Shown here: piece after piece, positions 13,236 to 34,285 of the stretch
Layout: every line of letters begins with the position of its first letter
Position numbering within the stretch: the stretch's first letter is position 1
Source: a virus
Lineage: Duplodnaviria > Caudoviricetes
Direction: 5' to 3' (one strand)
IMG/VR virus record: IMGVR_UViG_3300023174_000037
Length of the DNA stretch: 64,000 nt
The notes under the pieces: generated by a model
The model's input: only the letters and a program-made list of their open reading frames with translations
Told to the model about the DNA's origin: nothing
Databases searched by the model: none
Translations under genes and position numbers: made by a program

Positions 13236-13284
13236 CTCCTTAAATTAAGCGAGGGTTTGCGTCGGCCCGACCGTCGGCACCGAC
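13236..13284 (-). promoter_or_regulatory. Structured 5' leader with ROSE-like UCGCU/AGGAG pairing
   Basis: GUCGG-UGCCGACGGUCGGG-CCGAC hairpin, then UCGCU-UAAUUUA-AGGAG; same design as the hsp20 leader. Confidence 0.6.
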
Positions 13285-13312
13285 TTCTTTTCTCTACTGT
13301 ATTTATCTATTA

Positions 13313-13330
13313 TATATTGCAGTGCAACAT
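13313..13330. promoter_or_regulatory. PhaR-type palindromic operator candidate
   Basis: Minus strand ATGTTGCACTGCAATATA (TGC-N3-GCA core) abutting TATAAT (13314-13309). Confidence 0.45.
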
Positions 13331-13353
13331 TTTCCTAGTCTTTTTGGCTAGTT

Positions 13354-14058
13354 TTATGTTCTTAATTTTGCCAAACTCACAGAACGTAAAATACAGATAT
13401 ACATCCAACCTATATCAAATTCCCACCAAGTTTTGGAGAGGCGAGCACTGGCCGGTGCAAGGTGGTGGTTGTTGTGCAACTCTTCGCCACCAATCACAAT
13501 GCCCCAAGGACTAATATTCCTACTGTGATCTTTAGTTTTGCCATTTCTATATCCTATCCAATGAGCAACACCGTTAATAACGCCTGCGGCCCAGAACGGA
13601 ATCCATAGCATTTGTATGCCCCAGACCAATAATCCCCACCAACCAAATATCAGGGTGTTGAGCACAAGGAGAAGGCCAATGCCAAGTCTACTGTAAGGCT
13701 GGTATACGTGAAGCTCCATCCAATCAGCAGGAGTACCAACACCGTATGTATCAACCATAGTTTTATCTTTTGATGCCGCATGATATAACAATGCTCCTTT
13801 AAACAATACACGCCAGATTCCATAAACATGTGGCGTGTGCGGATCACCTTCTACATCACTAAATCTATGATGTTTTCGGTGTATAGCTACCCATTGTTTG
13901 GTAACCATACCAGTTGTTAACCACAGCCAAAAGCGCATAAAATGTGCAATTACAGGGTTAAATTCTACCGCTCGGTGTGCTTGGCTGCGGTGTAAATAAA
14001 GGGTAACACAGGCTATAGTAATGTGAGTCATTACTAGGGTTGCAATAATTGTTGACAT
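13354..14058 (-). CDS. Fatty acid (acyl-lipid/acyl-CoA delta-9-type) desaturase
   Basis: His boxes HRSQAH, HRKHH, HNNHH; GEELHNNHH and WEFDIGW motifs. Confidence 0.92.
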   Translation of the reverse strand: MSTIIATLVMTHITIACVTLYLHRSQAHRAVEFNPVIAHFMRFWLWLTTGMVTKQWVAIHRKHHRFSDVEGDPHTPHVYGIWRVLFKGALLYHAASKDKTMVDTYGVGTPADWMELHVYQPYSRLGIGLLLVLNTLIFGWWGLLVWGIQMLWIPFWAAGVINGVAHWIGYRNGKTKDHSRNISPWGIVIGGEELHNNHHLAPASARLSKTWWEFDIGWMYICILRSVSLAKLRT

Positions 14059-14096
14059 TAATTACTTATCCTAGTATAGGTCAATAAATATTCAAT

Positions 14097-14603
14097 ATGA
14101 CCTATATAACAGCACCAGATGCAACTTCTGAAAATATCTTTTTTGACATAATACTTGACGCAACCTATTGGGATCAACCACCCAAATTAGAAGTATTGGT
14201 TGACAACGAATCGGTTGGAACATACACAATAGATCAACCAGAATTTCATATTCGTTTTCGACGAGTTATGTCTTTTGACCAGCCACACACACTGGAATTG
14301 CGGCGCACTGGAAAAACACAGAATCAAACACAAATGTTAGATGATGGCACGTTTAAAACACAAATGTTGCATATACAAACTGTTAAACTTGACAATATAG
14401 ATTTAAGAAATCTAATATGGCATAATAGTAAATTTGAGCCCGAATATCCAGAGCCGTGGGCCAGAGAACAACGAAGTCAAGGAATTGAATTAGAACAGCA
14501 AGTCCTTGGAGAAATGTATCTTGGACACAATGGCACTTGGAGATTTATGTTTACTTCTCCAATATACAAATTTCTAGTTGCATGGGCAAAGGGGACTGTA
14601 TGA
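14097..14603 (+). CDS. Hypothetical protein
   Basis: 168 aa, ATGA-coupled to the next gene. Confidence 0.65.
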   Translation: MTYITAPDATSENIFFDIILDATYWDQPPKLEVLVDNESVGTYTIDQPEFHIRFRRVMSFDQPHTLELRRTGKTQNQTQMLDDGTFKTQMLHIQTVKLDNIDLRNLIWHNSKFEPEYPEPWAREQRSQGIELEQQVLGEMYLGHNGTWRFMFTSPIYKFLVAWAKGTV

Positions 14604-15436
14604 GTTGGGACCGCAATAAACTTACCACTACATTTATACCGTTAGCTGATGATTATTTAAAAAGAATAAGAACCGAATGGTTTGAAAAAGCTCATCCGGT
14701 GGTTACCAATCAACAACTAATACCCTTGCTCAACGAGTGGTTTCAATCAACTCGAGTCAATGATCTGCAAGGTTGGGCAAGTTTGCCATGTATAGACATA
14801 ACCATGGGCAACACTCACTACATTGAATCATTTGTAATACGTCACGGCTGGGATGGTTTTCAAGTTCTCACTGACGAATACGCTTATTATTCATTCAATG
14901 GTAAATGGGGAGTAGAAGTTGGCAACTTAGAACCCAACAAACCTTTGATTATAACACTTCCACACTATAAGTGGGCCGGAGTAAGACCCACATGGCCAGA
15001 AATTCTTCGTGAATGTGAACAAAAAAATATTGATATACACATAGACATGGCCTGGTGCACCTTATCTAAAAATGTAGCAATTGATTTTAGTCATCCTAAT
15101 ATTCAAAGTGTTGGCATGAGTATTAGCAAATATTCGATGCAGTGGAATCGTATAGGGCTTAGGTATAGCAAACAACGCACTATGGACAGTATTACTATGT
15201 TTAATCATTACTATCAACCCGATACCAACTCATCATTGAGTTCATGTGGTGCTTATGCCATTGATAGAATTCCTAGAGATTACGGTTGGACAACTTATGC
15301 TGATTCACATGCAGATATTTGCAAATCGTTAGATCTTATTGCAACAGATCTAATTCACGTGGTCAAAACAAAGCCCAACGGAACCGCAATGGGTATTACA
15401 AATTTATTAAGAGATGTTTTTCCAGAGAGCAAATAA
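14600..15436 (+). CDS. PLP-dependent fold-type-I enzyme-like protein (start corrected to 14600)
   Basis: IHIDMAW (PLP Asp) and MSISKY...RIGLR (Schiff-base Lys and Arg). Confidence 0.55.
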   Translation: MSWDRNKLTTTFIPLADDYLKRIRTEWFEKAHPVVTNQQLIPLLNEWFQSTRVNDLQGWASLPCIDITMGNTHYIESFVIRHGWDGFQVLTDEYAYYSFNGKWGVEVGNLEPNKPLIITLPHYKWAGVRPTWPEILRECEQKNIDIHIDMAWCTLSKNVAIDFSHPNIQSVGMSISKYSMQWNRIGLRYSKQRTMDSITMFNHYYQPDTNSSLSSCGAYAIDRIPRDYGWTTYADSHADICKSLDLIATDLIHVVKTKPNGTAMGITNLLRDVFPESK

Positions 15437-16012
15437 CGAATAACGTATTTGATTTTCTGGCACCATGTATGCCAATCGATGAGTTGGCCGGGTGATACGT
15501 TGATCTACAAAATATCCAGTATTGGACACAAAGGGTGCTGTAATTGATCCTGAATCAATTTTGAATTCTGTTCCAGGAGTGTCCTGGGATCCAAAAAGAT
15601 ATATCTGCATGGTTAAATGTATAGCAGGATTATCAGTGTGCCAATCTAAATCATAACCGCCTTGATCACGCCACAATGTAATGCCATCAAACACAATGGG
15701 TCTTGTTGGATCTAACTCTTGTAACACCGGTGTGAGTAAATGACACACTTCATGCATTTCTTCAACCACTGATTCAGGATCCCAAGCCAGTTTGTGTCTT
15801 GGTCTGTTATCCAATGGTTGACCATATGCTGTTGTTTCAGAATTCCACAAATCACTGTGATAATGTGCGTCAACGTACTCTTTTAACTTTGACAGCATTG
15901 GCTGATCAAATGCATCTTGTATAAATCTTAGTTGTGGGGTAATTTGACGGCTATTTTTAAATGCCGTTGATAATGTGCCTGCGTTATGATTTATAAGATC
16001 TTGATCAATCAT
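15407..16012 (-). CDS. 2OG-Fe(II) oxygenase
   Basis: WHTD (HxD), PTHRL (His), IRYSL (Arg-x-Ser). Confidence 0.75.
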   Translation of the reverse strand: MIDQDLINHNAGTLSTAFKNSRQITPQLRFIQDAFDQPMLSKLKEYVDAHYHSDLWNSETTAYGQPLDNRPRHKLAWDPESVVEEMHEVCHLLTPVLQELDPTRPIVFDGITLWRDQGGYDLDWHTDNPAIHLTMQIYLFGSQDTPGTEFKIDSGSITAPFVSNTGYFVDQRITRPTHRLAYMVPENQIRYSLFALWKNIS

Positions 16013-16051
16013 GATAAAATTACTTATCAGGATTTTTTTAACAGGTACTAA

Positions 16052-16159
16052 TTATTTGTATAATGCTTTAGCTTCTTCAATGCGACCTTGTCGGGTTAAA
16101 AACGTTGCATATCTTGCTTCGCCAAATGCTTCTAAAAATTTCCAGATAGATTTTATCAT
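16052..16159 (-). CDS. Small protein, 35 aa (not in track)
   Basis: MIKSIWKFLEAFGEARYATFLTRQGRIEEAKALYK*, ATGA-coupled to the upstream small ORF. Confidence 0.55.
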   Translation of the reverse strand: MIKSIWKFLEAFGEARYATFLTRQGRIEEAKALYK

Positions 16160-16329
16160 AGTCCACGGCTCCAATATTGTGTATTTGCTGTTTCATACTC
16201 ACGTTGCCAAAAGTCCACTTCTGCAGAGTTGGTTGGGTTTTTGCTGTTGATATACTGTTCTAACCGACTTTGATATTTCTGCGTTGGAAACATTTCTGCC
16301 AACCGTTCTAATACTCGTTCTAATAACAT
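16156..16329 (-). CDS. Small protein, 57 aa, DUF3563-like (tentative; not in track)
   Basis: GGAG RBS, MLLERVLERLAEMFPTQKYQSRLEQYINSKNPTNSAEVDFWQREYE... Confidence 0.5.
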   Translation of the reverse strand: MLLERVLERLAEMFPTQKYQSRLEQYINSKNPTNSAEVDFWQREYETANTQYWSRGL

Positions 16330-16382
16330 TTTGTGTTTTTCTCCATATTTTTGTAAAAACTCATGGTTTCTACTGAGATATT

Positions 16383-16400
16383 TATGCTGTGGCGCAACAT
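16383..16400. promoter_or_regulatory. Second PhaR-type box overlapping a late-type promoter
   Basis: Minus strand ATGTTGCGCCACAGCATA overlapping ATAAATA (16385-16379). Confidence 0.4.
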
Positions 16401-16489
16401 ATAATATTAAAGTTTTATGACGTTAAACCCTGTTCACTAATTTGAAATCTAATGGTTTATAAACTAAATATTTCACAAGGAGATTTATT

Positions 16490-16672
16490 ATGCTATCGTT
16501 TCTTAAAAAGTTTTTTGGTGCCAAACCCACAGTTTCACCTTGCCCTGAAGTACCCTACAAGGTTGAAACACCTGCCCCGGTGGCAGAAACAGCACCTGCG
16601 GTTAAAAAAGTAGCCAAAAAACCTGCGGTCAAAACAACTACCACTCGCAAACCAAGAACTCCCAAGGCTTAG
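16490..16672 (+). CDS. Small Lys/Pro/Ala-rich (histone H1-like tail) protein
   Basis: AAGGAG RBS; PAVKKVAKKPAVKTTTTRKPRTPKA C-terminus. Confidence 0.6.
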   Translation: MLSFLKKFFGAKPTVSPCPEVPYKVETPAPVAETAPAVKKVAKKPAVKTTTTRKPRTPKA

Positions 16673-16986
16673 TGCTGTAAGAAGTATCGTATCAATCCGA
16701 TACCATCAATTACAACCAGGAACACAGAGTTGGCCATTAGGCCAAAACTTCGTCGAGTCCAACAAGCCCAGGCACTGGCACAGCACCCAGCAATAAAAAT
16801 CGTATATAGTGGCACCACAGGAATAGTAGGCACCGTGGCTGCAAATATCACAGCACTTACTACACTACAGGCCCAGGCAAATACTTCTGCACAAAAACGC
16901 ACACGATTACTTTTCCAGTCGTGTTTAATATAATTCCACAGATTGCCTGCGCCTACAAAAATAAAATCCATTACATCCATCTCCAT
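16669..16986 (-). CDS. Small multi-pass membrane protein
   Basis: Three to four hydrophobic segments. Confidence 0.6.
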   Translation of the reverse strand: MEMDVMDFIFVGAGNLWNYIKHDWKSNRVRFCAEVFAWACSVVSAVIFAATVPTIPVVPLYTIFIAGCCASAWACWTRRSFGLMANSVFLVVIDGIGLIRYFLQH

Positions 16987-17131
16987 AAAAACATTTCGTA
17001 GTCGGGCTTGTTGTAAAAATATATGGTTTTATCTTTTACAAACCAACGTCTTGCACCAAGTGGGCCATATGTGTCAACTACCCATGCCAATACAGAAGTA
17101 GAAACTCGATGTAGTTCAACTCCGTAATAAT

Positions 17132-17365
17132 CTACTGATGTGTCCATTTTAATTTAAACAAAATAGCATCTTTAGGATCTTCAAATCTAAAAGCAAATCC
17201 TTCAGTCTGATGCCATCCATGCACATGATATCTGCTGGGACTACTATGTAGATTGCACCAACTGTATATTTCATTTACATGTGGACTATCATCTTCCAGT
17301 AACCAATCCCAACTGACTACACATTCGTGCCATTCAGGCGGCGGCCAAAGTTTTAACTGTATCAT
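17132..17365 (-). CDS. Hypothetical protein
   Basis: Ends FAFRFEDPKDAILFKLKW, a motif common in small large-phage ORFs. Confidence 0.55.
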   Translation of the reverse strand: MIQLKLWPPPEWHECVVSWDWLLEDDSPHVNEIYSWCNLHSSPSRYHVHGWHQTEGFAFRFEDPKDAILFKLKWTHQ

Positions 17366-18395
17366 CTACCAACCCCAGTTCTACAGCCCTGTTGTAAACC
17401 TGTTCACTGGCCAAGTTCTTGCCCTTGCTTTCACATTGGATATCAAAACGATCCCAAAAACTCAATGCCCAGTCTGTTACTGGTTGATTCCAATAAAAAT
17501 CACTGTGCGCCCGCATCTTTTGTTTTTTGTAGCCTGATTCCAACAACAATGCATGATCCGGAAGAATATCTATAGCATGATCTACCAACACATCTTCACG
17601 ACTCACGCTGTAATGTAGTGCAGGTCTAACACCACGCCATGAATCAATTACACGATCAAGTCTATGGTCGGTGGCCTGAATGTATTCTCCAGTACGGATC
17701 CAGTGGTGGTGTATGTCAAGCACAAGGGCACAATCGTTGGCAAGCTCGAGACTGCTGTCGATTCCCCAGGCGTTTTCGTCGTTTTCGATTGTGATGCAGT
17801 TTCTTGCTTCGGGAGATAACCGTCGGAGGGCATCGCGAATACCGGCGGGACCGCGTTTACCCGAAATGTGGACATTGATTTTGAAGTCTTGAAACGTCCG
17901 ACCGTATCCCATCCATCTGACCATATCAGCATGATATTCAAACTCCTCTACACTTCTATTTACAATACCTTCGTTCTCTGATGCCAGCACACAGAACTGT
18001 CCTGGGTGAAAACTAAGTCTAACATCTAGTCTGCGAGCCGTTTCGCCAATAGGAGCAAAAATCCGTTCCAGATGGTCTTGTATTTCTCTACGTTGCCACC
18101 AGGCTTGCCAATCCTTCTCAGTGTAGCCTTGCAACATTTCACTGCCCAGTCGAACCATTCTACGATTGGCCGGCAAGCTGGCCACACGCTCAATCAACTT
18201 GACTGCGGCTGTAGTATTGTGGTTCATGATGTCCCACTGCCGTTGTTCGGCTTCGGCTGGATGCTCACGCAACCAGCGCATGGTAGTTGAACGCCCGTTA
18301 AGGTCTCGATCCACTGCATTGACTTTCATACCGCCACATTCGGACGGGTCATTTAGCCATTTGCAACAGAAACCAATACGCTTTAGTGTAGTCAT
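17334..18395 (-). CDS. uvsE: UV damage endonuclease
   Basis: RIGFCCK, RLGSEML, RLSFHPGQF, INVHISG, TIENDE, LDIHHH, HYS, RAHSD, ESKGK. Confidence 0.93.
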   Translation of the reverse strand: MTTLKRIGFCCKWLNDPSECGGMKVNAVDRDLNGRSTTMRWLREHPAEAEQRQWDIMNHNTTAAVKLIERVASLPANRRMVRLGSEMLQGYTEKDWQAWWQRREIQDHLERIFAPIGETARRLDVRLSFHPGQFCVLASENEGIVNRSVEEFEYHADMVRWMGYGRTFQDFKINVHISGKRGPAGIRDALRRLSPEARNCITIENDENAWGIDSSLELANDCALVLDIHHHWIRTGEYIQATDHRLDRVIDSWRGVRPALHYSVSREDVLVDHAIDILPDHALLLESGYKKQKMRAHSDFYWNQPVTDWALSFWDRFDIQCESKGKNLASEQVYNRAVELGLVDDTVKTLAAA

Positions 18396-18401
18396 ACTGC
18401 T

Positions 18402-18430
18402 ATTATACGGCAGTGCAACTTGTTTGTCAA
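18402..18430 (-). promoter_or_regulatory. Consensus sigma70 promoter of uvsE (leaderless)
   Basis: TTGACA-17bp-TATAAT then 6 nt to ATG; no SD. Confidence 0.8.
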
Positions 18431-18984
18431 CTGTTAGTTAGTGCTAAAACGGTATCCATAGTGTCAGTGACCAAATTTTCCAAAGCAAGCAACGATGGTG
18501 CCAATGGTTCAGCATGATCCACTACTACCCATTGTGTTTGGCTGTAATCTTTTATGGCCTGATGAAACAGGTTACGATGGTGCTGTGCTTGATTTGATTC
18601 CAATCGATCTGAATTTGATTTTAATTTGGTTAGATCCCAGCCCAACAGCAACACAATATCACTGGTGGTTGCAGCCAAATGCAGTGCTACAATTTCTTCT
18701 TGCCTGATCACATCATGCACAAAATCACCAGCATACAATCGAACTCCGGGTGGGCGCCCTAACAATACATTTATCGAATCAGGCACATAAAAATTACAAC
18801 GTTCTTGGAACTTGCGTTTGATCAATTCATCTGCCTTGGCTTGGTTGTGGCATATTACATTGTCTGTTTGATAGGCCCGCCAAGTGCGCCACGAACCCCA
18901 AATTGGTCCTAGCTTTTTGAGAGCATCAATATTTTGGGTAGGATCTAACTCCGCACCGTCGGCTATTACCCAACTGATATTCAT
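18427..18984 (-). CDS. Hypothetical protein, weak MptE/Maf-like (DUF115) signature
   Basis: LHLAA....IVLLLGWD resembles the A..LG..I.LLG.D motif. Confidence 0.4.
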   Translation of the reverse strand: MNISWVIADGAELDPTQNIDALKKLGPIWGSWRTWRAYQTDNVICHNQAKADELIKRKFQERCNFYVPDSINVLLGRPPGVRLYAGDFVHDVIRQEEIVALHLAATTSDIVLLLGWDLTKLKSNSDRLESNQAQHHRNLFHQAIKDYSQTQWVVVDHAEPLAPSLLALENLVTDTMDTVLALTNS

Positions 18985-20261
18985 TCGGCGCTTTTAAGAG
19001 TTTTCCAACGATGTCCACCTATGCACACCCAGGCAAAAATAGGAGAATCGTTGGAATCTGAATTGAATACTATATCGCCTTTGGTACCCGAGTATCCAGG
19101 AACTTGTGGTGCGTGAGCAATACGATGCAGGCCAACTTGCAGTTGTTTTATTCGTGTCAAGCCGTCCGATGTAAGTTCAATCTGTGGTTGTCTATTAACT
19201 CCAATAACAATGCCTTGTGCTCTATTAGTTCCAATATAGGCTTCATTGGCTTTGTTCTTGCCAATCACTATACTGACTTCTTCGTCCCACACGCTCAATG
19301 CCATTTCTGGACTCACTGTGTTTACACCTATGCGCTTGTTTAACACCGCCAAAGTTTGATTGTTAAATGTAGACTCTCCAGCAACAGTTAATGTTGTTAA
19401 CGTACCTAATGATTTTATGTTTGTATCCGTGATGTTTTTTGCCAAGGTGTTACCATTAACTAACAACTCTCCGTTAATTTTAACAGAATCAAAATCAATA
19501 CCGTTGGATTTTATTTCTTCTGCTACTTGTGCTGTTAATAATGTTTTCCATTTGTCCGACAGTCGATTGATTGTTTTTTCACTAATACCCTCTGCTAATA
19601 AATCCCAACTTGGATTGTCGATGTTGACGGACCCTTTGACCACAAGATCTTTTATAACTGCCGCATTGCTAACATTTAAATCACGTGCGGTTAATTCATT
19701 GTTAACCACAGTGGAATCATCTGTTATAGTTAGCTGACAAGAACCGGCCTGATCACTGATTCCTGTGCTGGCAAAATTATCCAGTAGGTCTTGCTGAAAC
19801 GCAGTCATGTGTTCATCAACTCGTTGTTTGATAATTGGATTTAGATCAATTTGCCCAAACTGCCGAACCACCTGATTAACCACGGCTTGATTAATTTGCT
19901 GTTCAATTTTGGCTAACCATACAGGATCCTTACCTAACACCTCAACAGAACTGTCAACCAATTGTTCTACAGCAACATCAATGGTATTTTTAATAGCAAT
20001 CTTGTCTACATATTGGTCAATGCCTGGAACCGCGCCATTTTTAAATAGTTCGTTAACACTTGATTTAACGGTGTCGGTTATTTCAGGCAGGTATTCTGCG
20101 TTGGCAAATTTTGCCATAACACGGGCTTGCACAAATTCAACTATTTGTTGTTCAAATGAATTTAGCCACTCCTCTGATCCTAGAGCAGCAGAAACTTGCT
20201 CGTTGACTTGTTCTGTAATTTGTTGTCGTACTAGTTGCTCAATGGCCGCTGTATCAAGCAT
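18981..20261 (-). CDS. Hypothetical protein, helical N-terminus plus fibre-like beta C-terminus
   Basis: 426 aa coupled to the amidinotransferase; RIGVNT.SP..ALSV and G.KGDIVFN...FAWVC motifs are seen in phage fibres. Confidence 0.5.
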   Translation of the reverse strand: MLDTAAIEQLVRQQITEQVNEQVSAALGSEEWLNSFEQQIVEFVQARVMAKFANAEYLPEITDTVKSSVNELFKNGAVPGIDQYVDKIAIKNTIDVAVEQLVDSSVEVLGKDPVWLAKIEQQINQAVVNQVVRQFGQIDLNPIIKQRVDEHMTAFQQDLLDNFASTGISDQAGSCQLTITDDSTVVNNELTARDLNVSNAAVIKDLVVKGSVNIDNPSWDLLAEGISEKTINRLSDKWKTLLTAQVAEEIKSNGIDFDSVKINGELLVNGNTLAKNITDTNIKSLGTLTTLTVAGESTFNNQTLAVLNKRIGVNTVSPEMALSVWDEEVSIVIGKNKANEAYIGTNRAQGIVIGVNRQPQIELTSDGLTRIKQLQVGLHRIAHAPQVPGYSGTKGDIVFNSDSNDSPIFAWVCIGGHRWKTLKSAE

Positions 20262-27236: not shown

Positions 27237-28349
27237 TCAGTTCTGCTTTAATGTTATAACAGTAGATCCACCGGCATTGACACGATTTTTAAATTCCAAT
27301 ACTCCTTGTGTCATATAGATAGTTGAATTTTGATTCTTAGGCACAGTTACACTTTGTATATTACTACTGTCGTCTCTACTAAGAGTAACTGTGTTATCAT
27401 CTACGGCGGCAATGATTCCTGTGATGGCTTGATAATCTGGTAATAGGCCACTGCTGGTGGTATTCAATAAATTTAACTGTGCGGCCATTTGTGCGTTGAT
27501 AAGATCCAACACATTGACCAAAAAATCCTGATCCAATAGATTAGTTCTTAGTGTGTCTTTAAATACAGGTTCTTGTGCGTCAAACGCATTAACTAGTCCA
27601 TTTTCTTTGAGAAAATCTACATCCAGTGCGCCTTTGACTGATATTCTAGTTTCTCGATTTTCTACAAATTCTCTAGGTGGTGCCACAATTAACATATTAT
27701 TAATAGCATCAATGCTTAAATTTAATACCACCGGTTTGGTTGGTAATACACCGCGAGTGTCAACTTTGGTGGCCTGATAAGGTCGATTTAAAATAACCGA
27801 TCCAGCATCAGTGGTTACTGAGATTTCTCCAGTCTTGCAATCACGCTCAACATCGCGCCAGCCAAAAGGACAACTAGGTAGTAGTATAACCGTGCTTGCA
27901 CCTAGTTCGTCTACAGTAGCAGTAAAATCAGTGCCGCGGACAGCAATAGTAGCAGTTGGGGTGTTAATTGAGACTTTAGATGGATCGTTCTTAGCAATAG
28001 ATCCACTAGCATATCTAACAGTGCCCGAGGCCATGTTGAGAGCCAGCTTGCCCGCTTGAGGCTTTTTAGGGTCATAGACAAAGTCGTCAATGACCAATCG
28101 ACTATTTTCATTTACTTGTACCTGTGTGTTGTCTGCAAAAGTTATTCCAGCTTTACCCCGGGCGGTCCTTACTTCGTCCTGCATCTCCACTCCGGTACCT
28201 TTGGTTCCAGTCAGCGTCGTCTTCTGTCGTTGTATCGAAGGCGGGGTGTTCACTTGTTCCGTCACGGTCCCGATCGCGGCGTTTGAGATCGTTGATATAC
28301 TGAGCAAGAGTAAGAATAGTATCGGGTTGCATAACTGGCTCCTTTTCAC
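27237..28349 (-). CDS. FecR-domain protein, secreted/periplasmic
   Basis: Signal peptide; D.VRTARGKAGITFADNTQVQVNENSRL, GTVRY, INTPTATIAVRGTDF. Confidence 0.85.
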   Translation of the reverse strand: MKRSQLCNPILFLLLLSISTISNAAIGTVTEQVNTPPSIQRQKTTLTGTKGTGVEMQDEVRTARGKAGITFADNTQVQVNENSRLVIDDFVYDPKKPQAGKLALNMASGTVRYASGSIAKNDPSKVSINTPTATIAVRGTDFTATVDELGASTVILLPSCPFGWRDVERDCKTGEISVTTDAGSVILNRPYQATKVDTRGVLPTKPVVLNLSIDAINNMLIVAPPREFVENRETRISVKGALDVDFLKENGLVNAFDAQEPVFKDTLRTNLLDQDFLVNVLDLINAQMAAQLNLLNTTSSGLLPDYQAITGIIAAVDDNTVTLSRDDSSNIQSVTVPKNQNSTIYMTQGVLEFKNRVNAGGSTVITLKQN

Positions 28350-28360
28350 TTATATACCTT

Positions 28361-29194
28361 TTATCGATTATATTGTTGTATACTAAATGTGTTACCACTA
28401 CCGGCACTTTTAACATTAGCAATATTATCACCGGCTGCGCCTTGCTGTTGTATGCCAACTGTGTTGCCAGAACCCAATAACTCCACAACTGCTTGATGTC
28501 CGGACCCACCACCAGTTTGTTGCACTGTGACTGCGTTAGTTGATCCTCCTGCGGTTACACTAGCAGAGCCACCAGGGCTTTGTAGGTCTAAACTAATATT
28601 GTTGCCAGCACCCAAGGTTGTTGTAATACTACCTGTAATATTGTCACCAACCATTCCAATAGTTGCTGAGTTGTTGGCTCCGCCCGAAGTGTCAATTGTA
28701 GCTGTGTTGCCAGCACCACGTGACATAACATTGGCTGTGGCGGCATTGCCATCTTGTGTTATGTTAATAGTGTTGGCATTGCCCGGCGTTTGTGCAGAAC
28801 CAATGTCAATGATAGCATTAGAATTCATACTGTTAGTCAACGCATAGTTAACCGTGGTTGTTCCGGTAGTATTGGCCACCGCTAATTTTACTGTATTACC
28901 ACTGCCGATTTGACTTACACTAACTTGATTACCATCGCCCATAATTGACGCTGGGGTAGTATTCCCAGTGCCAGCCCCTGGCAGTCCCCTTACTACGTTT
29001 CCACTTCCGTCCTGCGTGACTGTAACCGTGGCGTTATCTCCGGCTTGATCAATGTAAATGCTATTGTCAGCGGCCAGCGCCGCGCCCGTTACCAGCATCA
29101 CAGCCGATAATAGTATTGCGAATAATTTTCTCGGCCATCCGCCACTGCCTGTTCTGCTATATTTCATAATATACCAAATTGAGTTGGCAGACAA
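28361..29194 (-). CDS. Curlin-like repeat protein (CsgA-like), secreted (start may be 29167)
   Basis: Signal peptide ending ALA; Q-x-G-x-G-N type repeats (QAGDN, QDGSGN, QIGSGN, LGSGN, QQGAAGDN, AGSGN). Confidence 0.75.
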   Translation of the reverse strand: MSANSIWYIMKYSRTGSGGWPRKLFAILLSAVMLVTGAALAADNSIYIDQAGDNATVTVTQDGSGNVVRGLPGAGTGNTTPASIMGDGNQVSVSQIGSGNTVKLAVANTTGTTTVNYALTNSMNSNAIIDIGSAQTPGNANTINITQDGNAATANVMSRGAGNTATIDTSGGANNSATIGMVGDNITGSITTTLGAGNNISLDLQSPGGSASVTAGGSTNAVTVQQTGGGSGHQAVVELLGSGNTVGIQQQGAAGDNIANVKSAGSGNTFSIQQYNR

Positions 29195-29230
29195 AGTCTG
29201 TACCCCAATTCTTTCCCTGGGCCATGCCCG

Positions 29231-30400
29231 TTATTTTACTACCAGTGAGGATCTTTTTACAAATCCTCGTTTGCCATCTCTGGCCACCACTGCAACCCAG
29301 TCCCCCTCGGCTGGACTTACTTTTAATTCGGTGTTTGCTTTCAACCACCAGGTACGTTGACTTTTTTCATTAGTTTCTTTGTAAATGTAGCTATCTGCTA
29401 CAAGATACATTATTAAATCTGACGCGGCTGGCGATGTCATAACTGGTTCTTCTTTCTTTGCTTCTACCACAGGTGCTGCTCTAATTGGTTCTTCTTTCTT
29501 TGCTTCTACCACAGGTGCTGCTCGAACTGGTTCAACCACTGTGGGTGTTTGAACCACAGGCGGCGGATCTTTTTTAAAGTCCCATACACCTTTCTTTTCG
29601 CCTTCTTTGATCAGTTCAACCACAGCGGCTTCAACAGTGGCTTTGACGGCCAGGGTGCCAGGTTCGTTAATGGTCAAGCCTGACTCTGCTTCAAACATGC
29701 TTCCAGTTAAACTGTTAACATTATTGGCATTGCCAAAAATTCCTCCAGCAATATTTTTGTTATCAATATATTTTAACACCGCGACCGAATCTGCTGTGCT
29801 GTAAACAATTTTGGTTACAGTTATGGCTGCAAGCACCTTGCCGGTGTTTACGCTAACGGCTCGTAGACTCACGGTCACGGTGTCTTTTGAATATTGTGTT
29901 TGCGGACCAATACCCAAGAATCTATAAGCGGCTCCGCCTGACTCAGATCCTGAGTCGTAACCAATAATACCACCATCCATGATGATACCGGCAAACATCA
30001 ACGGCATCAACGGCTTGGCATCTTTGCCTTCGTAGGCTTCACGCATCTGACGAATGATTGTGCGTTCTTTGGTCAAGGCATCAATGTTTACACGTTCGAC
30101 TACATCAAACCATTGTCCACGTCCCACATCTTGCAAGGCCTTGATTAGGAACACTTCCCCGCCTTGGGTTACTGCCGAGCTTAAACTGGCTATGCCCGGA
30201 GTAGGTTTGCGCTGACCTGTCTTGTCAGCAAAACTGTAAACTGCCACAGTGACCTTTTTGCCAGCGGGCGCCGGCAGTGTATCAAATTCTTTTTGTAGTT
30301 TGTTGACAGCCACCTCGGGTTTATACTCAACGCCCATTTTCTGAGATACAGCACACCCAGACAATATCAACACGGAGAGGACGATTAATATCTGTTTCAT
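29231..30400 (-). CDS. csgG: Curli secretion channel CsgG lipoprotein with C-terminal SH3-like extension
   Basis: LSGC lipobox; VAVYSFADKTGQRK, AVTQG...LIKAL, WFDVVER..IDALTKER.IIR, GGIIGYD, VTVSLRAVSVNTG; Pro-rich linker; W......G.RGFV tail. Confidence 0.9.
   Translation of the reverse strand: MKQILIVLSVLILSGCAVSQKMGVEYKPEVAVNKLQKEFDTLPAPAGKKVTVAVYSFADKTGQRKPTPGIASLSSAVTQGGEVFLIKALQDVGRGQWFDVVERVNIDALTKERTIIRQMREAYEGKDAKPLMPLMFAGIIMDGGIIGYDSGSESGGAAYRFLGIGPQTQYSKDTVTVSLRAVSVNTGKVLAAITVTKIVYSTADSVAVLKYIDNKNIAGGIFGNANNVNSLTGSMFEAESGLTINEPGTLAVKATVEAAVVELIKEGEKKGVWDFKKDPPPVVQTPTVVEPVRAAPVVEAKKEEPIRAAPVVEAKKEEPVMTSPAASDLIMYLVADSYIYKETNEKSQRTWWLKANTELKVSPAEGDWVAVVARDGKRGFVKRSSLVVK
29444..29533. 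repeat. 42-bp tandem repeat (2.1 copies) in the csgG linker
   Basis: tggttcttctttctttgcttctaccacaggtgctgctc(t/g)aa(t/c), encoding (V/I)RAAPVVEAKKEEP twice. Confidence 0.9.
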
Positions 30401-30883
30401 TTAATTTCCAAACTGGAATGATCCCAACGGAACTGTGACCGTGGTTTGATTGCCAATGGTATCAGTGACCTGGAGATAGATATTCGTACTATCCTTGTTC
30501 CAGAATATTGTGTTACCTTCAAAGTTTAATGTTCCACTACACCCTACACTGTTACTGCCCGAGCAGTTGTTGTTGGCAAACATGGCCGTGGCCAAGTTCT
30601 GACTTATTTGAGCGTAGATACGCGACTCCAAGTTGTTCATGAACTTGGCAATGTTGGTATTACCAGCCGCAGCCGCGGCCTTGTCCAGGGCGGCCTGTAT
30701 GTCCTTGGCCACTTGAGCCCGTCGAGTATTTTCTTGGTTTTCAATAGTCAACACATGACTGCTATATCCACTGCCGTTGAAACTTGGACTCTTAAATGTA
30801 TAGTCATTAATGGGTGTCGCAGTGGCGGCAAAAGATAGCCATAGGCTAACCAGACCGAGTATTTTATTCTTATTATTTTGCAT
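30401..30883 (-). CDS. csgF: Curli assembly protein CsgF-like
   Basis: Signal peptide, YTFKSPSFNG..Y.SH.LTIENQE, F.NNLESRIYAQIS, final TTVTVP; immediately upstream of csgG. Confidence 0.75.
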   Translation of the reverse strand: MQNNKNKILGLVSLWLSFAATATPINDYTFKSPSFNGSGYSSHVLTIENQENTRRAQVAKDIQAALDKAAAAAGNTNIAKFMNNLESRIYAQISQNLATAMFANNNCSGSNSVGCSGTLNFEGNTIFWNKDSTNIYLQVTDTIGNQTTVTVPLGSFQFGN

Positions 30884-30938
30884 ACTCTAGCTCCTATTAG
30901 TATTTAACAGAATCTAGTGCAAGAGTTATGTGGTGGTT

Positions 30939-31223
30939 TTACGACTTTTTGTTTATTTGTTTTTCAGCATCTACACGCTCGTGCTCAATGGTTTTGCCAC
31001 GTAAGTGTAGCACAGTGTTGACCTTTTGATTTAAACGAATCAAGTCGTTATCCAGCATACGGATACGATCAATAAGTGCTATTAGAACGGCATTAGCGTC
31101 GCTGATCACTGGCTTAATCTCTTTGGTAGCCCATTCCCAAACATACTTGATAATGAAGCCCATGCCAACTGCCATGACAATTGGAAAGCCATATTTGTTT
31201 ACCAAGTTTACTATGTCACCCAT
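30939..31223 (-). CDS. Small membrane/coiled-coil protein (paralog of 32205-32486)
   Basis: YGFPIV.A.GMG TM then LIDRIRMLDNDLIRL. Confidence 0.65.
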   Translation of the reverse strand: MGDIVNLVNKYGFPIVMAVGMGFIIKYVWEWATKEIKPVISDANAVLIALIDRIRMLDNDLIRLNQKVNTVLHLRGKTIEHERVDAEKQINKKS

Positions 31224-31360
31224 TACGCGATCCAGCCTACAACAACGCCTGCTACAAATGCTATCAAGGCAAACTTGGCTAAATCTATATCAGTCCAAAT
31301 TTGATGATTGTACCCATACTCGGCGATGCTGTTGGGTAAATGATTTGGTTGTTTATTCAT
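31223..31360 (-). CDS. Small membrane protein, 45 aa (not in track)
   Basis: MNKQPNHL...DLAKFALIAFVAGVVVGWIA*, coupled to both neighbours. Confidence 0.5.
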   Translation of the reverse strand: MNKQPNHLPNSIAEYGYNHQIWTDIDLAKFALIAFVAGVVVGWIA

Positions 31361-32208
31361 TTTTGTTCTCCGTCTTTTAAAAACTTTTCTAATTTACTAA
31401 CTTTAACTAGCATGGCTCGACCGTCAACATTAGTAACTTTAAAATAGTCGCCGTGATGCCATCCTAGCTTATCTATATTAAGTTCTGGATCAAACTTAAT
31501 ATATTCAGGTTCTAAATCCCACTCGTAGTCATAGTGCCTCATAGCAAGTAATCTCCATCAGCACGTTCCTTAACTTCAGGGCAACAATCTCCCCATTTCA
31601 ATAAAAATTCTGTTAATATCGGGCCTTCAGGAATCCAGAATCGTGTACGATTAAGATGTAGTTCGTATTTGGTCAAAGTTGAATCAAGCCAGCCAGCAAC
31701 TTGTAAGAACTTAGGATCTTTTGTGTAAACACAATATTGACGTATCACTTTAGTGTACCTTGTTGTTTGGCGGCCAGCATTCGAAACCATTCTTTTTTCA
31801 TCTCAACATCGTGTCTGATTTGAGTCAAGCGATCTTCACCATCAATTTTTGTATAGATGTATAATAACACCGCAATAAAACTAAACAAACATATAGCGTA
31901 TAACTGATCAGCTGTGAATGTAATTGTGAATGTCATTTTATTGCCTTGTTATACTCACTAAGACGATCTGCACATGCACGGATATCAGCACTTAACTCGC
32001 CCGCTCCAATTTTTTGTGCAACTTTACGAGCAATGTCATGTAAACGTATAACCAGATATTCGATATCAAAATCCATTGTGTCGGCTCCTTGTTTTAAAAA
32101 TTTTTCTAGTTTTCTTGTTCGGGCTTCTTCATCGTGCTGGGCCATATACTGCTCAATGATTTCTTTGTTGTTGTGAATATAATTCCAACGCTGTTGAGTA
32201 TTCATCAA
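31357..32208 (-). CDS. Run of four small coupled hypothetical ORFs (31357-31542, 31539-31790, 31745-31936, 31933-32208)
   Basis: Overlapping start/stop codons in one direction; no recognisable family. Confidence 0.5.
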
Positions 32209-32486
32209 TCTCTCCTGGCATCTTCTTTGCCGTCTGCACGAGCAATACGGTCTGTATCAGGTTTCAATCCCAGAGCATTGCTGACAATGGTATCAATGCG
32301 AATAACATCGTGATTCATGGTTTTTACGCGATTGTCTAAAGCTGTGATAATGCCGGCCATGCCTTTGACTGCTGACAAAACGCCAGCTAACAACAGTTTG
32401 ATTGTGAGATATACAAAGTAGCCACCGGCGAGTGCGGCAGCAATCGGAAAACCCAGATCTCCGATGATCTTAAATGCTTCATTCAT
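32205..32486 (-). CDS. Small membrane/coiled-coil protein (paralog of 30939-31223)
   Basis: LGFPIAAALAGG TM then LDNRVKTMNHDVIRI. Confidence 0.65.
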   Translation of the reverse strand: MNEAFKIIGDLGFPIAAALAGGYFVYLTIKLLLAGVLSAVKGMAGIITALDNRVKTMNHDVIRIDTIVSNALGLKPDTDRIARADGKEDARRD

Positions 32487-32607
32487 ACCAGCTCCTTTTA
32501 GAGTCTTATTATTATACAGATATTTAGTTTATATGGTCATATTAAGGTAAACGGCGTATATTACTCCTAAATGTTACGCCGCCGCCAAACCGGCTTTAAA
32601 TACACAT

Positions 32608-33399
32608 ATGAAATTTGCATTTGATTTAATTTCAGATTTACACGTTGAAACTTGGCCCGACTTTGATTGGACCGGGCAAGCCACGGCTCCTTATTGCGTA
32701 GTAACCGGCGATGTTGCCCGTGACAGAGACGTGTTGATCAGCACACTAACACACCTTGGAAAATGCTATCCGGGCGGAGTGTTTTATATCGACGGCAATG
32801 AAGAACACAAAGATTACTACGAAGATCTAGGCGAAAGCTATCGTGATTTGTATCACCGAGTAAGTCAAATTAAAAACGTAGTTTATCTTCAAGACAATGT
32901 GGTCATTGTCAATGGCGTGGCCATACTAGGAACCAATGGCTGGTGGACATATGATTTTGATCCGTGTATGAGTGTGGATCAAAGCGTTATGCATATTCAA
33001 CAGCATTTTCATATTAGTAATTCTGCGGCTACTAGTATAACCGGCATAGCTTATCATGATGCGGCTTACTTGATCAAGAGTGTGCAAAAACTACAAAAAC
33101 ACAGTGACGTAAAAGCAATAGTTTTAGTCAGCCATACTGTTCCGGCGCCGTGGATAATCGCGCATGATCTAGATCTGGTAGATACTTGGAGATTTAATGG
33201 TATGGGAAATACTCATATTGCCAGATCCATTGAAGAAGATACCGAAAACAAAATTAAAACATGGTGTTTTGGACACTATCATCGACCCGTAGACCAACAA
33301 CTGGGCGGAATACAATATCTAAGTAATCCCAGAGGACGAGGAAATACTCCATGGCATCAATCCACGTTCTATCCTCGACGCATAGAGATTGACGTTTAG
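32608..33399 (+). CDS. Calcineurin-like metallophosphoesterase
   Basis: SDLH, GDV, GNEEH (variant of GNHE), SHTVP, GHYH. Confidence 0.85.
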   Translation: MKFAFDLISDLHVETWPDFDWTGQATAPYCVVTGDVARDRDVLISTLTHLGKCYPGGVFYIDGNEEHKDYYEDLGESYRDLYHRVSQIKNVVYLQDNVVIVNGVAILGTNGWWTYDFDPCMSVDQSVMHIQQHFHISNSAATSITGIAYHDAAYLIKSVQKLQKHSDVKAIVLVSHTVPAPWIIAHDLDLVDTWRFNGMGNTHIARSIEEDTENKIKTWCFGHYHRPVDQQLGGIQYLSNPRGRGNTPWHQSTFYPRRIEIDV

Positions 33400-33704
33400 A
33401 CTGTCTCGGGTTCTAGTTTGATTTGCAACGGATAGTTGTTGTTGCGGGCTTGAACAGTTACTTCAATGCCTTTTTGTTCAGCTATTTCATACGGTAATAC
33501 CGCAACCACTGCACTGCCTTCTTGGTGAATATCAATAGTGATCTTCTCAGCAGTTTCTGTATTGTAATTGAATGAGTCAATCAAGGTCTCAATTACAAAT
33601 TCCATAGGTGTAGCATTGTCATTTAGATAAATCAGCTTGAACATGGGTGGTTCTGTGAGTCCCACATTAACTTGTGTTTTTGTTATTGTTCCAATTTGTG
33701 ACAT
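33396..33704 (-). CDS. clpS: ATP-dependent Clp protease adaptor ClpS (start corrected to 33704)
   Basis: PPMFKLIYLNDNATPMEFVIETL, IH.EGSAVV...YEIAEQK, YPL...LEP. Confidence 0.9.
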   Translation of the reverse strand: MSQIGTITKTQVNVGLTEPPMFKLIYLNDNATPMEFVIETLIDSFNYNTETAEKITIDIHQEGSAVVAVLPYEIAEQKGIEVTVQARNNNYPLQIKLEPETV

Positions 33705-33766
33705 CTCAGATCCTTTAAAGGTAGCAGTAGAGAGCACATGCCCTCTACTGTATTTACTATATTATA

Positions 33767-34213
33767 TTACTTCTTGTAGGTAATAGCAATAGTTTTAGGC
33801 TTCATTGCTTCAGGAATCTGACGTTCCAAGCTAACAGTAAGAATACCGTCTCGGCTAGTAGCATCAGTTACTTCAACATAATCAGCCAATGTAAATGTGC
33901 GAATAAAACGTCGGGCACTGATGCCTTGATATTCATATGCATATCCTTCGGGCAGATCAGTAGTTTCCTTTTCACCGGTAATAACCAATTGTCCGTCGTT
34001 TACATTAACTGTAACTTCACCTTGTGTAAAACCAGCAACAGCCACTTGAATTTCGTAGGTGCTCTCGCCTGTTTTTACAATATTGTAAGGTGGGTAGTTA
34101 GTTGTTGAGGAAGCCGCAGTATCAATTTGATGCATCATACGATCAAATAATCGGTCTACACCAATTGAGTTGCGATAGAATGGATTGAGATCCAGAGTTG
34201 TGATTTTTGTCAT
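33767..34213 (-). CDS. Small heat shock protein Hsp20 (IbpA-like; start corrected to 34213)
   Basis: SIGVDRLFD, NYPPYNIVK, AVAGF, YQGISARRF.RTF.L, GIL.V.LER.IPE..KP..IAI. Confidence 0.95.
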   Translation of the reverse strand: MTKITTLDLNPFYRNSIGVDRLFDRMMHQIDTAASSTTNYPPYNIVKTGESTYEIQVAVAGFTQGEVTVNVNDGQLVITGEKETTDLPEGYAYEYQGISARRFIRTFTLADYVEVTDATSRDGILTVSLERQIPEAMKPKTIAITYKK

Positions 34214-34219
34214 TGTTTT

Positions 34220-34285
34220 CTCCTTTGTTAAGCAAGTGACATATACAGTAGACCCGACCATCGGCATCTACATAGTATATTTATA
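34220..34285 (-). promoter_or_regulatory. hsp20 late-type promoter plus structured ROSE-like leader
   Basis: TATAAATA (34285-34278), GUAGA-UGCCGAUGGUCGGG-UCUAC hairpin, UUGCU-UAACAA-AGGAG. Confidence 0.65.

Follow-up and report, generated by a model that had tools for sequence, protein, structure and literature searches.

Why should a phage begin two genes of different kinds with the same RNA leader, and what might that leader sense? The question arises from the window analyzed here, a 64-kb stretch of DNA from a giant freshwater phage that is the source of both leaders. One leader precedes hsp20 (33767-34213, minus strand), which encodes a 148-aa IbpA-like small heat-shock protein (sHSP; Pfam HSP20, 2.5e-17). 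The other precedes p79 (12989-13228, minus strand), whose all-helical 79-aa product belongs, by family comparison, to a virus-only family. In bacteria, ROSE-type RNA thermometers, heat-sensitive switches that mask a ribosome-binding site, are classic regulators of small heat-shock genes. Judged by its sequence, the hairpin that the two leaders share is the known hairpin I of the short two-hairpin ROSE-like thermometer of Pseudomonas ibpA (ROSE_3) and not a new motif. We think it reasonably probable that both leaders, as homologues of the Pseudomonas ibpA leader, are cis-acting translational controls of this short ROSE type that would melt on warming.

Structure and conservation of the two leaders

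Hairpin I of the hsp20 leader (34271-34248, minus strand) reads GUAGA-UGCCGAUGGUCGGG-UCUAC, and that of the p79 leader (13284-13261, minus strand) reads GUCGG-UGCCGACGGUCGGG-CCGAC; a preliminary description of this DNA had placed and read both correctly to the base. Direct comparison of the leaders bears out its further statements that the 14-nt cores are identical at 13 positions and that the outer stems are distinguished by two pairs, both changed in a compensatory way (A-U to C-G and A-U to G-C). The hsp20 hairpin combines the outer stem GUAGA/UCUAC with a U.G pair, a bulged G, and the inner stem CCGA/UCGG, and the p79 hairpin has the outer stem GUCGG/CCGAC with a core like that of the hsp20 leader. 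The downstream stretch is also as first described: UUGCU at hsp20 and UCGCU at p79, then UAA, three or four nucleotides, AGGAG, and an ATG start codon (34213 and 13228, respectively). Across the 64 kb, the exact core TGCCGAYGGTCGGG occurs only in these two leaders. When a covariance model made from homologous leaders was used to scan the window, only the same two sites matched (77.7 and 57.5 bits; E values of 2e-16 and 1e-11), and the third-best match reached 19 bits.

The second hairpin of each leader contains the ribosome-binding site. In the hsp20 leader (hairpin II, 34208-34241, minus strand), CUUGCUU (34236-34230) lies opposite the Shine-Dalgarno (SD) sequence AAGGAG (34225-34220), and an outer helix of UGUCA (34241-34237) with UGACA (34212-34208) extends over both the start codon and codon 2. 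Hairpin II of the p79 leader (13223-13258, minus strand) places CUCGCUUA (13253-13246) opposite UAAGGAG (13242-13236) and leaves a G bulged; at the start codon, it allows AAAC (13258-13255) to pair with GUUU (13226-13223).

The reading first proposed for this locus depended on the shared hairpin being kept in homologous leaders, and it is kept, with compensatory changes, across about 46 distinct leaders. Two alignments were used, one of 30 leaders aligned with MAFFT and one of 46 distinct homologous phage leaders aligned to the model. Hairpin I is 99.1% paired in the 46 leaders, with compensatory changes in 8 of its 10 pairs. In the MAFFT alignment its pairing is 99%, each of the five outer pairs shows two-sided changes in 4 to 11 sequences, and the observed covariation score was reached by none of 500 shuffles. 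RNAalifold recovered hairpin I without an input structure; hairpin II was not called by this program from the MAFFT alignment. The UYGYU/AGGA anti-SD helix with its nearly invariant bulged G is 95.3% paired in the 46 leaders (93 to 95% over 30 to 46 leaders), where C-G and U-G alternate at both Y positions. The start-codon helix, in which upstream bases pair with the start codon and codon 2, is 79.6% paired in the same 46 sequences, with two-sided changes at three pairs, and it tracks codon 2 in two gene families. Finally, the U.G pair of hairpin I is kept in 42 of the 46; because this pair is a C.A mismatch on the opposite strand, the constraint acts on this RNA strand.

Relationship to ROSE_3 and predicted folding

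Full-length alignment to the ROSE_3 model (RF02523) gave 27.3 bits (E value of 2.8e-4) and 32.0 bits (E value of 1.9e-5) for the two leaders. Both scores lie under the gathering threshold of 43 bits, and a gathering-mode Rfam search of the window returned no match. The leaders of relatives score 18 to 40 bits, likewise below the family threshold, and the P. aeruginosa ibpA leader, our positive control, reached 69.2 bits in the same test. Like the Pseudomonas ibpA leader (PMC3669281), the phage leaders have two hairpins within about 60 to 65 nt and align over the full length of the model. Hairpin I of both fits the family consensus GAUGCCGA..UCGGGUC, including the U.G pair and the bulged G. ROSE elements are recognized by two to four hairpins in the 5' untranslated region (5'UTR), of which hairpin I is stable and conserved (ROSE_3 consensus GAUGCCGAAgUCGGGUC), and by a U(U/C)GCU in the 3'-proximal hairpin whose pairing with the SD is imperfect and leaves a G bulged. 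Both leaders have these traits. A third trait, a position directly upstream of a small heat-shock gene, belongs to the hsp20 leader, as in Pseudomonas, but not to the p79 leader. At the sequence level, then, these leaders have a structure that is conserved and covaries, are homologous to ROSE_3, and are steadily associated with hsp20 and the p79 family.

The phage elements also differ from the Pseudomonas element. Their upper hairpin II is A/U rich, without flanking G-C clamps, and hence weaker. The start codon, unpaired in Pseudomonas (PMC3669281), is occluded in the phage leaders by an additional helix. They are phage borne and lie behind phage promoter-like boxes, whereas Pseudomonas uses a sigma-32 promoter, and the phage element also precedes a gene that does not encode an sHSP.

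Folding predictions for the p79 leader are straightforward, as its minimum-free-energy fold is exactly the two-hairpin ROSE structure. Its hairpin II alone has computed energies of -2.4, -4.05, and -5.45 kcal/mol at 37, 25, and 15°C, compared with -4.1, -5.5, and -6.8 kcal/mol for the experimentally validated P. aeruginosa type at the same temperatures, so the p79 hairpin is predicted to match the stability of the Pseudomonas one at a temperature about 10°C lower. For the AUG of the hsp20 leader, the prediction is an unpaired fraction of 0.05 at 15°C that grows to 0.41 at 50°C. However, the register preferred by ViennaRNA in this leader pairs the "bulged" G with the spacer instead of adopting the ROSE register, which alone is marginal (-0.3 kcal/mol at 37°C), and the SD is predicted to be half-open at all temperatures. 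Whole-leader folding energies are ordinary (z of about -1). We regard the ViennaRNA melting predictions as plausible for the p79 leader and ambiguous for the hsp20 leader.

Genes and promoter-like boxes at the two leaders

The association with hsp20 is widespread. The motif precedes hsp20 at 113 of 120 sampled viral loci, and the leader is found ahead of hsp20 in at least 120 viral contigs as well as in cultured phages of Methylophilales, Synechococcus, Prochlorococcus, and Sinorhizobium. The preliminary description had also proposed that the element extends to a non-sHSP gene, and it does so consistently across lineages of the p79 family. This family consists of purely viral, helical proteins of 70 to 80 aa, and almost every lineage examined has the leader. 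In one distant lineage, the p79 homologue lies 22 nt upstream of hsp20 with a single leader in front, an apparent operon. In the window, an intrinsic-terminator-like hairpin (12943-12963, minus strand; nine pairs and then a T-run) lies 26 nt past the p79 stop codon, so p79 looks like a single-gene transcription unit.

The first label given to p79, "phasin-like," fares less well. The 79-aa open reading frame (ORF) matched no Pfam or PHROG family, its product matched neither phasin profile (PF09361 Phasin_2 and TIGR01841), and fold and PDB searches with it gave no match. What remains of the label are subthreshold matches in a few relatives: among 26 family members, 3 match Phasin_2 (best E value of 0.0086) and 2 match TIGR01841 (best E value of 0.0093), all below the cutoffs. 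In an Atlas feature search with p79, a phasin cluster ranked 57th (0.86).

ROSE-type control outside sHSP genes has bacterial parallels. In P. aeruginosa, a ROSE-like thermometer lies upstream of rhlA, a non-heat-shock gene. Bacterial ROSE-like thermometers also occur upstream of ABC transporter genes, again unrelated to heat shock (PMC11342760, PMC12857270). The p79 leader is likewise a ROSE module outside sHSP genes. However, those bacterial genes have known functions, whereas the p79 family is virus only, has the leader in nearly all lineages, and is tied to hsp20 by gene order. A literature search found no paper on a ROSE-type leader in phages. The type of switch is known; what is new is its use by phages on a second gene family, one of non-sHSP proteins. 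The leader may serve as a functional tag that ties this uncharacterized family of 70- to 80-aa viral proteins to a heat-shock or aggregation response, a link supported by the gene order with hsp20 in the distant lineage. It offers a concrete first hypothesis for p79, a protein without other annotation.

Both leaders follow an ATAAATA box, as originally noted: TATAAATA at 34285-34278 for hsp20 and GATAAATA, which matches it at 7 of 8 positions, at 13307-13300 for p79. The hsp20 promoter-like region (34278-34308, minus strand) has a perfect TTGACA (34308-34303) 17 nt upstream of the box, so the box is also part of a sigma-70-type promoter-like TTGACA-N17-TATAAA; relatives have the same putative promoter, TTGACA...GTGGTAAA.GTGTTATAAATA. 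The p79 promoter-like region (13300-13327, minus strand) comprises the palindrome TTGCA-C-TGCAA (13327-13317), TATAAT (13314-13309), and the box, and homologous loci show a similar arrangement of TTGC...GCAA and AAATA. The sequence of the hsp20 box allows two readings, a sigma-70-type promoter and a T4-type late box, the latter being defined by TATAAATA about 6 nt upstream of the transcript start, no -35 element, and use at many late genes. The box is at most a candidate late promoter, and TATAAATA shows no enrichment, with 4 copies in the 64 kb against 3.9 expected. GTAGA had been reported behind the late box at clpS and at the small 16329 ORF. At both sites, GTAG(A) indeed comes after an AAATA box, but neither site contains a ROSE-type element. 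The neighboring clpS instead has a different, strongly covarying 11-bp hairpin directly after the same AAATACAGT box.

What the leaders may sense

We infer that both leaders are controlled by temperature or by Hsp20, and we favor temperature. Hairpin I would be a stable G+C-rich 5' hairpin, with its invariant U.G pair, bulged G, and CC/GG core, that does not itself sense temperature and probably stabilizes the mRNA and aids the folding of hairpin II. In hairpin II, UYGYU with its bulged G would pair with the AGGA of the SD, and in this phage group the start codon and codon 2 would also be tied up in an outer helix with 4 to 5 bases from further upstream. Ribosome binding would be blocked at low temperature. 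On warming, the weak A/U-rich hairpin II would melt, and Hsp20 and the 79-aa protein would be translated together. This division of labor is known from the Pseudomonas short ROSE-like elements, in which only hairpin II melts, while hairpin I stays folded, and hairpin II suffices by itself for thermoregulation (Krajewski, Nagel and Narberhaus 2013, PMC3669281). In the phage, melting would occur in the physiological range and control translation, with a set point presumably lower than that in Pseudomonas. If the leaders function in this way, phages can regulate their own chaperones posttranscriptionally without recourse to the host's heat-shock sigma factor, and they may do so at the cooler temperatures of lakes and oceans. 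Besides the subthreshold ROSE_3 scores and the folding results that do not favor the ROSE structure, one observation counts against the thermometer reading: the hairpin I core is conserved far beyond what a mere stabilizing hairpin needs, which this reading leaves unexplained.

Such strict conservation, from Pseudomonas to phages, would fit the recognition site of a trans-acting factor, and a candidate is Hsp20 itself. Free Hsp20, and not temperature, may be the main signal: oligomers would bind the leader and repress translation until titrated onto aggregating proteins. Because the same leader precedes p79, the two genes would then form a damage-sensing feedback regulon, a notion with which the apparent operon of the distant lineage agrees. 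The precedent is the E. coli/Salmonella ibpA leader (ROSE_2; Miwa/Cheng/Taguchi), also a ROSE-type leader on an IbpA-like gene, where IbpA binds its own 5'UTR and represses translation; for this, no other residue can replace R93, positions 97 and 98 must be positively charged, and it matters that residue 34 is aromatic (PMC10474464; bioRxiv 10.1101/2020.04.20.050740). In an alignment with Salmonella IbpA and IbpB, phage Hsp20 keeps the equivalents of Y34, R93, and R97 (NYPPYN and GISARRFIRTF), which are absent from IbpB, a protein that does not repress, and one such protein could control more than one mRNA. However, the K98 equivalent is T, with an extra R at position 94, and K98A ended repression in E. 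coli (PMC10474464); R93 is a general sHSP arginine and therefore a poor discriminator. The enterobacterial leader, moreover, folds into three hairpins, and its upstream hairpin differs in sequence. As it is bound by IbpA and yet lacks the UGCC...GGG core, this core is not what IbpA needs. We consider an Hsp20 signal possible but unlikely as the main input; it can coexist with thermosensing.

Another proposal is that the leader mainly affects mRNA stability and processing, with hairpin I guarding the 5' end against decay that starts there, hairpin II being an ordinary structure near the ribosome-binding site, and expression being constitutive once the gene is transcribed. The separate covarying hairpin at clpS suggests that these phages use 5' hairpins generally, a stabilizing role for hairpin I has been suggested by Krajewski et al. 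(PMC3669281), and hairpin II of hsp20 is predicted to be very weak. However, this proposal leaves unexplained the invariant bulged G, the UYGYU/AGGA register in which C-G and U-G alternate, the way the start-codon helix follows codon 2 in two gene families, and the full-length match to a thermometer family. In addition, hairpin I of p79 starts about 15 nt after the box and so may not be at the 5' end. We regard this explanation as improbable. It is highly improbable that the inverted repeat acts as DNA, as a CIRCE/HrcA-style operator or a transcription terminator or attenuator with no RNA switch: it does lie immediately 3' of the promoter-like boxes, but the outer stem varies freely provided that pairing holds, the many G.U and U.G pairs are strand specific, hairpin I lacks a T-run behind it, and the conserved parts run on into the SD and start codon.

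Returning to the ROSE-type leader as a translational switch, we offer a broader and doubtful scheme in which the phage has an autonomous proteostasis regulon that works without sigma-32. In it, Hsp20 would act together with the p79 family, p79 could be a small amphipathic, distantly phasin-like protein coating aggregates or hydrophobic surfaces, and the leader would read both temperature and free Hsp20, the latter via hairpin I and the R93/R97/Y34 surface. If this were true, the phage would tune its chaperone supply to the protein load of the infection.

There is a possible precedent among phages in lambda cIII mRNA, which Altuvia et al. are said to have described in 1989 as a phage-encoded RNA thermosensor. 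It differs from the leaders described here in that it switches between alternative conformers and has no ROSE zipper; the structures are unrelated, and there is no sequence relationship. The resemblance lies in a phage mRNA whose translation hinges on a temperature-sensitive alternative structure around the ribosome-binding site and whose product is a small helical protein linked to the heat-shock and protease network of the host.

Two leaders and their relation to ROSE_3

The pair of leader RNAs in the preliminary description is confirmed, and the interpretation placed on it, a phage post-transcriptional regulon that would answer to temperature or to Hsp20, is supported at the level of sequence. 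Read directly from the minus strand, hairpin I of the hsp20 leader is GUAGA-UGCCGAUGGUCGGG-UCUAC (34271-34248), and the 3' part is CUUGCUUAA-CAA-AGGAG, followed by the ATG at 34213. The leader of p79, a 79-aa open reading frame (ORF) on the minus strand (12989-13228), has hairpin I GUCGG-UGCCGACGGUCGGG-CCGAC (13284-13261, minus strand, also read directly) and continues as CUCGCUUAA-UUUA-AGGAG to the ATG at 13228. The claimed near identity of the cores and compensation of the outer stems is exact to the base, with one mismatch in the 14-nt core and two compensatory stem pairs. The exact 14-nt core occurs at just these two sites within the 64 kb, and R1, a covariance model built from the phage leaders, finds only the same two copies (next-best match, 19 bits). 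That 19-bit match, at 38818-38874, was rejected as a third copy, as it aligns to the Shine-Dalgarno (SD)-proximal part alone. No close DNA relatives of either locus were found by DNA search among 50,697 deposited phage genome records; the DNA runs that contain the stretch are freshwater metagenomes.

A covariance model and a search of Rfam and of phage genomes had been suggested as a check. The Rfam model ROSE_3 (RF02523), the short two-hairpin thermometer of Pseudomonas ibpA, aligns over its full length to both leaders in E-value mode, with 27.3 bits (E = 2.8e-4) for hsp20 and 32.0 bits (E = 1.9e-5) for p79. Both scores are below the ROSE_3 gathering score of 43, and gathering mode gives no Rfam match anywhere in the window. 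As a positive control, the Pseudomonas aeruginosa ibpA leader, taken from a mis-filed record in the phage collection, scores 69.2 bits. What had been noted as a core plus outer stem is hairpin I of ROSE_3, for which the family consensus is GAUGCCGAAgUCGGGUC, with the U.G pair and bulged G. Given the full-length alignments and the identity of hairpin I, the phage leaders are divergent relatives of a known element and not a new motif. R1 in turn detects leaders in relatives of this virus and, before hsp20, in the cultured phages Melnitz (52.5 bits), S-B64 (33.3), Phosso (25.9), P-TIM40 (24.1), and HTVC115P (17.9). We found no description in the literature of ROSE-type leaders in phages; in bacteria, ROSE-like elements have already been described on genes other than those of heat shock (PMC11342760).

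Leaders were collected from the IMG/VR relatives of Hsp20 (23 loci) and of p79 (13 loci). A leader lies directly before the start codon in every one of these loci except that of the most distant hsp20 (43% identity). A MAFFT alignment of 30 distinct leaders shows 99% pairing in hairpin I, with both sides of every one of the five outer pairs altered in 4 to 11 sequences, giving stems as different as GUAGA/UCUAC, GUGGA/UCCAC, GUAGG/CUUAC, ACGAA/UUCGU, GUUAG/CUAAC, CAAGA/UCUUG, and GAAGU/GCUUC. None of 500 shuffles of these 30 leaders reached the observed covariation score, and shifting the partner columns by 1 to 3 positions lowers pairing from 97% to 35-57%. RNAalifold recovers hairpin I when no structure is supplied; it does not call hairpin II, the helix between the anti-SD (UYGYU) and the SD (AGGA) with a bulged G. 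In 46 distinct leaders aligned with R1, hairpin I shows 99.1% pairing and compensation at 8 of its 10 pairs, so that the hairpin is retained, not lost, in homologous leaders. The anti-SD helix is 95.3% paired in the same set, with alternation of C-G and U-G at both Y positions. Because 42 of the 46 sequences retain the U.G pair beside the bulged G, the constraint acts on this RNA strand and not on duplex DNA. Copies within one genome have differing outer stems and are therefore maintained separately, without homogenization by gene conversion. The core of hairpin I is very strongly conserved from Pseudomonas to phages, a conservation for which a role in structure alone does not account.

Predicted masking of the ribosome-binding site and start codon

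In the Pseudomonas elements, hairpin II melts at 25 to 42°C and alone suffices for thermoregulation, and the G+C-rich hairpin I remains closed, with a probable part in folding or in stabilizing the mRNA (Krajewski et al., PMC3669281). The phage leaders share this layout, except that the upper part of their hairpin II is A/U-rich. ViennaRNA predicts energies for the p79 hairpin II of -2.4, -4.05, and -5.45 kcal/mol at 37, 25, and 15°C, compared to -4.1, -5.5, and -6.8 kcal/mol for P. aeruginosa at the same temperatures. By these predictions, the p79 helix would reach a P. aeruginosa-like stability about 10°C lower, which fits a phage of lake water. Whole-leader folding energies are ordinary (z about -1) and uninformative.

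The present analysis adds a further helix, which involves the start codon. A conserved UGUCA just 5' of the anti-SD in hsp20 leaders pairs with UGACA, made up of the UG of the start codon and codon 2; in two hsp20 lineages in which codon 2 is ACU, AGUCA replaces UGUCA. The equivalent segment of p79 leaders is AACAU or AAAC, with AUGUU or GUUU as partner. Pairing of this helix reaches 91% in the first set of leaders and 80% in the wider one, and three pairs are changed on both sides. For hsp20, ViennaRNA finds the ROSE register of hairpin II alone to be marginal, and the predicted minimum-energy register differs from it. This register, the lack of an RNAalifold call for hairpin II, and the ordinary whole-leader energies are weak points of the predictions. 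Despite the marginal ROSE register, the start-codon helix would hold the AUG paired, with predicted unpaired fractions of 0.05, 0.22, and 0.41 at 15, 37, and 50°C. The start codon of the Pseudomonas ROSE elements is unpaired (PMC3669281), in contrast to that of the phage leaders. The difference is a real one, with the phage version predicted to mask the SD and the AUG alike.

The leaders might also respond to Hsp20 itself. In Escherichia coli, IbpA binds the ROSE-type leader of its own mRNA; for repression, R93 is irreplaceable, a positive charge is required at positions 97 and 98, and Y34 matters, and IbpB, which is without these residues, does not repress (PMC10474464; bioRxiv 10.1101/2020.04.20.050740). 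We therefore added a comparison of the phage Hsp20 with IbpA at these residues. It retains the equivalents of Y34, R93, and R97 but has T at the position of K98. These residues are compatible with IbpA-like feedback yet do not establish it, as R93 is common among proteobacterial small heat-shock proteins.

The p79 family and its association with hsp20

The hsp20 product is a member of the HSP20 family (Pfam, 2.5e-17), and p79 has no family in searches of Pfam and PHROG. The family of p79 comprises proteins of 70 to 84 aa, with 212 relatives after clustering at 90% and 21 representative clusters at 50%. The Atlas clusters nearest to p79 are 100% viral among members with a recorded taxon; most members are listed as hypothetical by their sources, and automatic annotation has given unrelated enzyme names to three. 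When 5.8 billion proteins were searched with a profile, unnamed viral relatives alone were matched. A 1259-aa TPR protein was rejected as a relative, being a low-complexity or repeat artifact. AlphaFold models p79 with confidence (pLDDT 86) as three helices; fold searches of the AFDB clusters and PDB gave no significant match (best E value of about 1), and the PDB sequences gave none.

Sub-threshold matches bear on the label "phasin-like" in the preliminary description. Among 26 members of the p79 family, Phasin_2 (3/26) and TIGR01841 (2/26) are the commonest matches below threshold (best E value of about 0.009), and a phasin cluster is at rank 57 for p79 in the Atlas feature search. Together, these matches weakly suggest a phasin-like protein.

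The extension of the leader to a gene for something other than a small heat-shock protein is borne out by the p79 family. Among distant lineages (29 to 40% identity), the leader precedes the gene in five of the six with readable DNA, scoring 51.8, 46.3, 32.8, 24.5, and 16.5 bits, and is absent from the sixth. The p79 gene of the window looks like a single-gene unit with a strong intrinsic terminator at its end. In one distant lineage, only 22 nt separate the p79 homologue from an HSP20 gene downstream of it, and a single ROSE-like leader precedes both; this apparent operon link is new to the present analysis. The shared leader and the gene order tie the p79 family to hsp20. From this genomic context, p79 probably takes part in the same response to stress as Hsp20; the context speaks to the response and does not address the biochemistry. 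Melnitz and Pelagibacter phage HTVC115P carry small ORFs 3' of hsp20, which were rejected as p79 relatives. Directly upstream of p79 in the window is a fatty-acid desaturase-family gene (13354-14058, minus strand).

Leader copies, promoters, and gene neighborhoods

An IMG/VR scan for the core plus ROSE motif yielded at least 120 loci; among the 120 listed, the downstream gene is hsp20 in 113, p79 in 6, and dnaK in 1. The large related contigs scanned (G001 to G006) hold two or three leader copies each, before hsp20, before p79, and in several at a third site about 2.1 kb upstream of hsp20. This third copy (L003, 778-870; L006, 790-880; L010, 771-860; L009, 796-885) has no counterpart in the window. 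It was rejected as a groES leader, as it precedes a conserved 8-codon ORF (MSKH..LT) and not the groES ribosome-binding site; the order that follows is the 8-codon ORF, a separate sigma-70-like promoter, and groES-groEL-hsp20. The mini-ORF aligns to the 5' end of hsp20 past its own stop codon, with a one-base gap, and looks like the relic of a duplicated hsp20 start. Placing the "groES" copy of the relatives on this relic is also an addition of the present analysis. In the window, groESL is absent and hsp20 bears the promoter of the relic copy. We infer from this arrangement that groESL may have been lost by recombination between the two leader repeats, or that the window represents a state preceding insertion in the reverse direction.

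The hsp20 neighborhood is a proteostasis cluster consisting of a ClpX-like ATPase gene (34736-35935), ribosomal protein S21 (34518-34739), hsp20, and then ClpS. In relatives as in the window, the S21 gene (minus strand; Pfam, 1.6e-15) is flanked by the ATPase gene and the ROSE-led hsp20. S21 functions in SD-dependent initiation, and its position beside SD-masking leaders may be no accident. Elsewhere in the window, at 38128-38823 (minus strand), is a gene for a Bax1-I (BI-1/YccA-like) membrane protein. YccA-type proteins modulate FtsH, and by analogy this gene would be a further tie to membrane and proteostasis stress.

An AAATA box does precede both leaders, as described, and that of hsp20 doubles as TTGACA-N17-TATAAA. 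The "late box" as such fared less well: with 4 copies in the window versus 3.9 expected, TATAAATA shows no enrichment. The combination [AT]TAAATA-N1-7-GTAG occurs four times versus 1.2 expected (13306, 16385, 34284, and 61436), always on the minus strand and upstream of genes, and GTAG may indicate the region in which transcription starts in this promoter class. Neither GTAGA site, at clpS or at the 16329 ORF, is a ROSE element. Just 5' of the AAATA box, p79 (13317-13327, minus strand), the 16329 small ORF (about 16388-16400, minus strand), and p79 homologues (L025 to L036; L075, 210-225) have a TTGC-N3-6-GCAA palindrome or GTTGCRCC-ACAGCA. This feature is also present in the p79 lineage that has no ROSE leader, and could be part of a phage promoter or a binding site for a regulator.

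Contigs from RNA libraries that match the window exactly span 34061-34326, taking in the leader and the 5' region of hsp20, and a contig of a relative spans 33891-34313. These contigs are at most a weak hint of expression of the hsp20 locus; they place no start site, one extends 5' past the promoter box, and carry-over of DNA is possible.

The clpS gene also has a structured leader. Directly after a TATAAT..GTAAATACAGT box is an 11-bp hairpin (33725-33750, minus strand; z = -2.6), and 3' of it a small CCU/AGG hairpin lies over the SD region (33711-33720), before the ATG at 33704 on the same strand. By its pattern of variation, the 11-bp hairpin is a second covarying 5' leader hairpin, not ROSE-like: across 15 related loci, its sequence varies and its pairing is kept.
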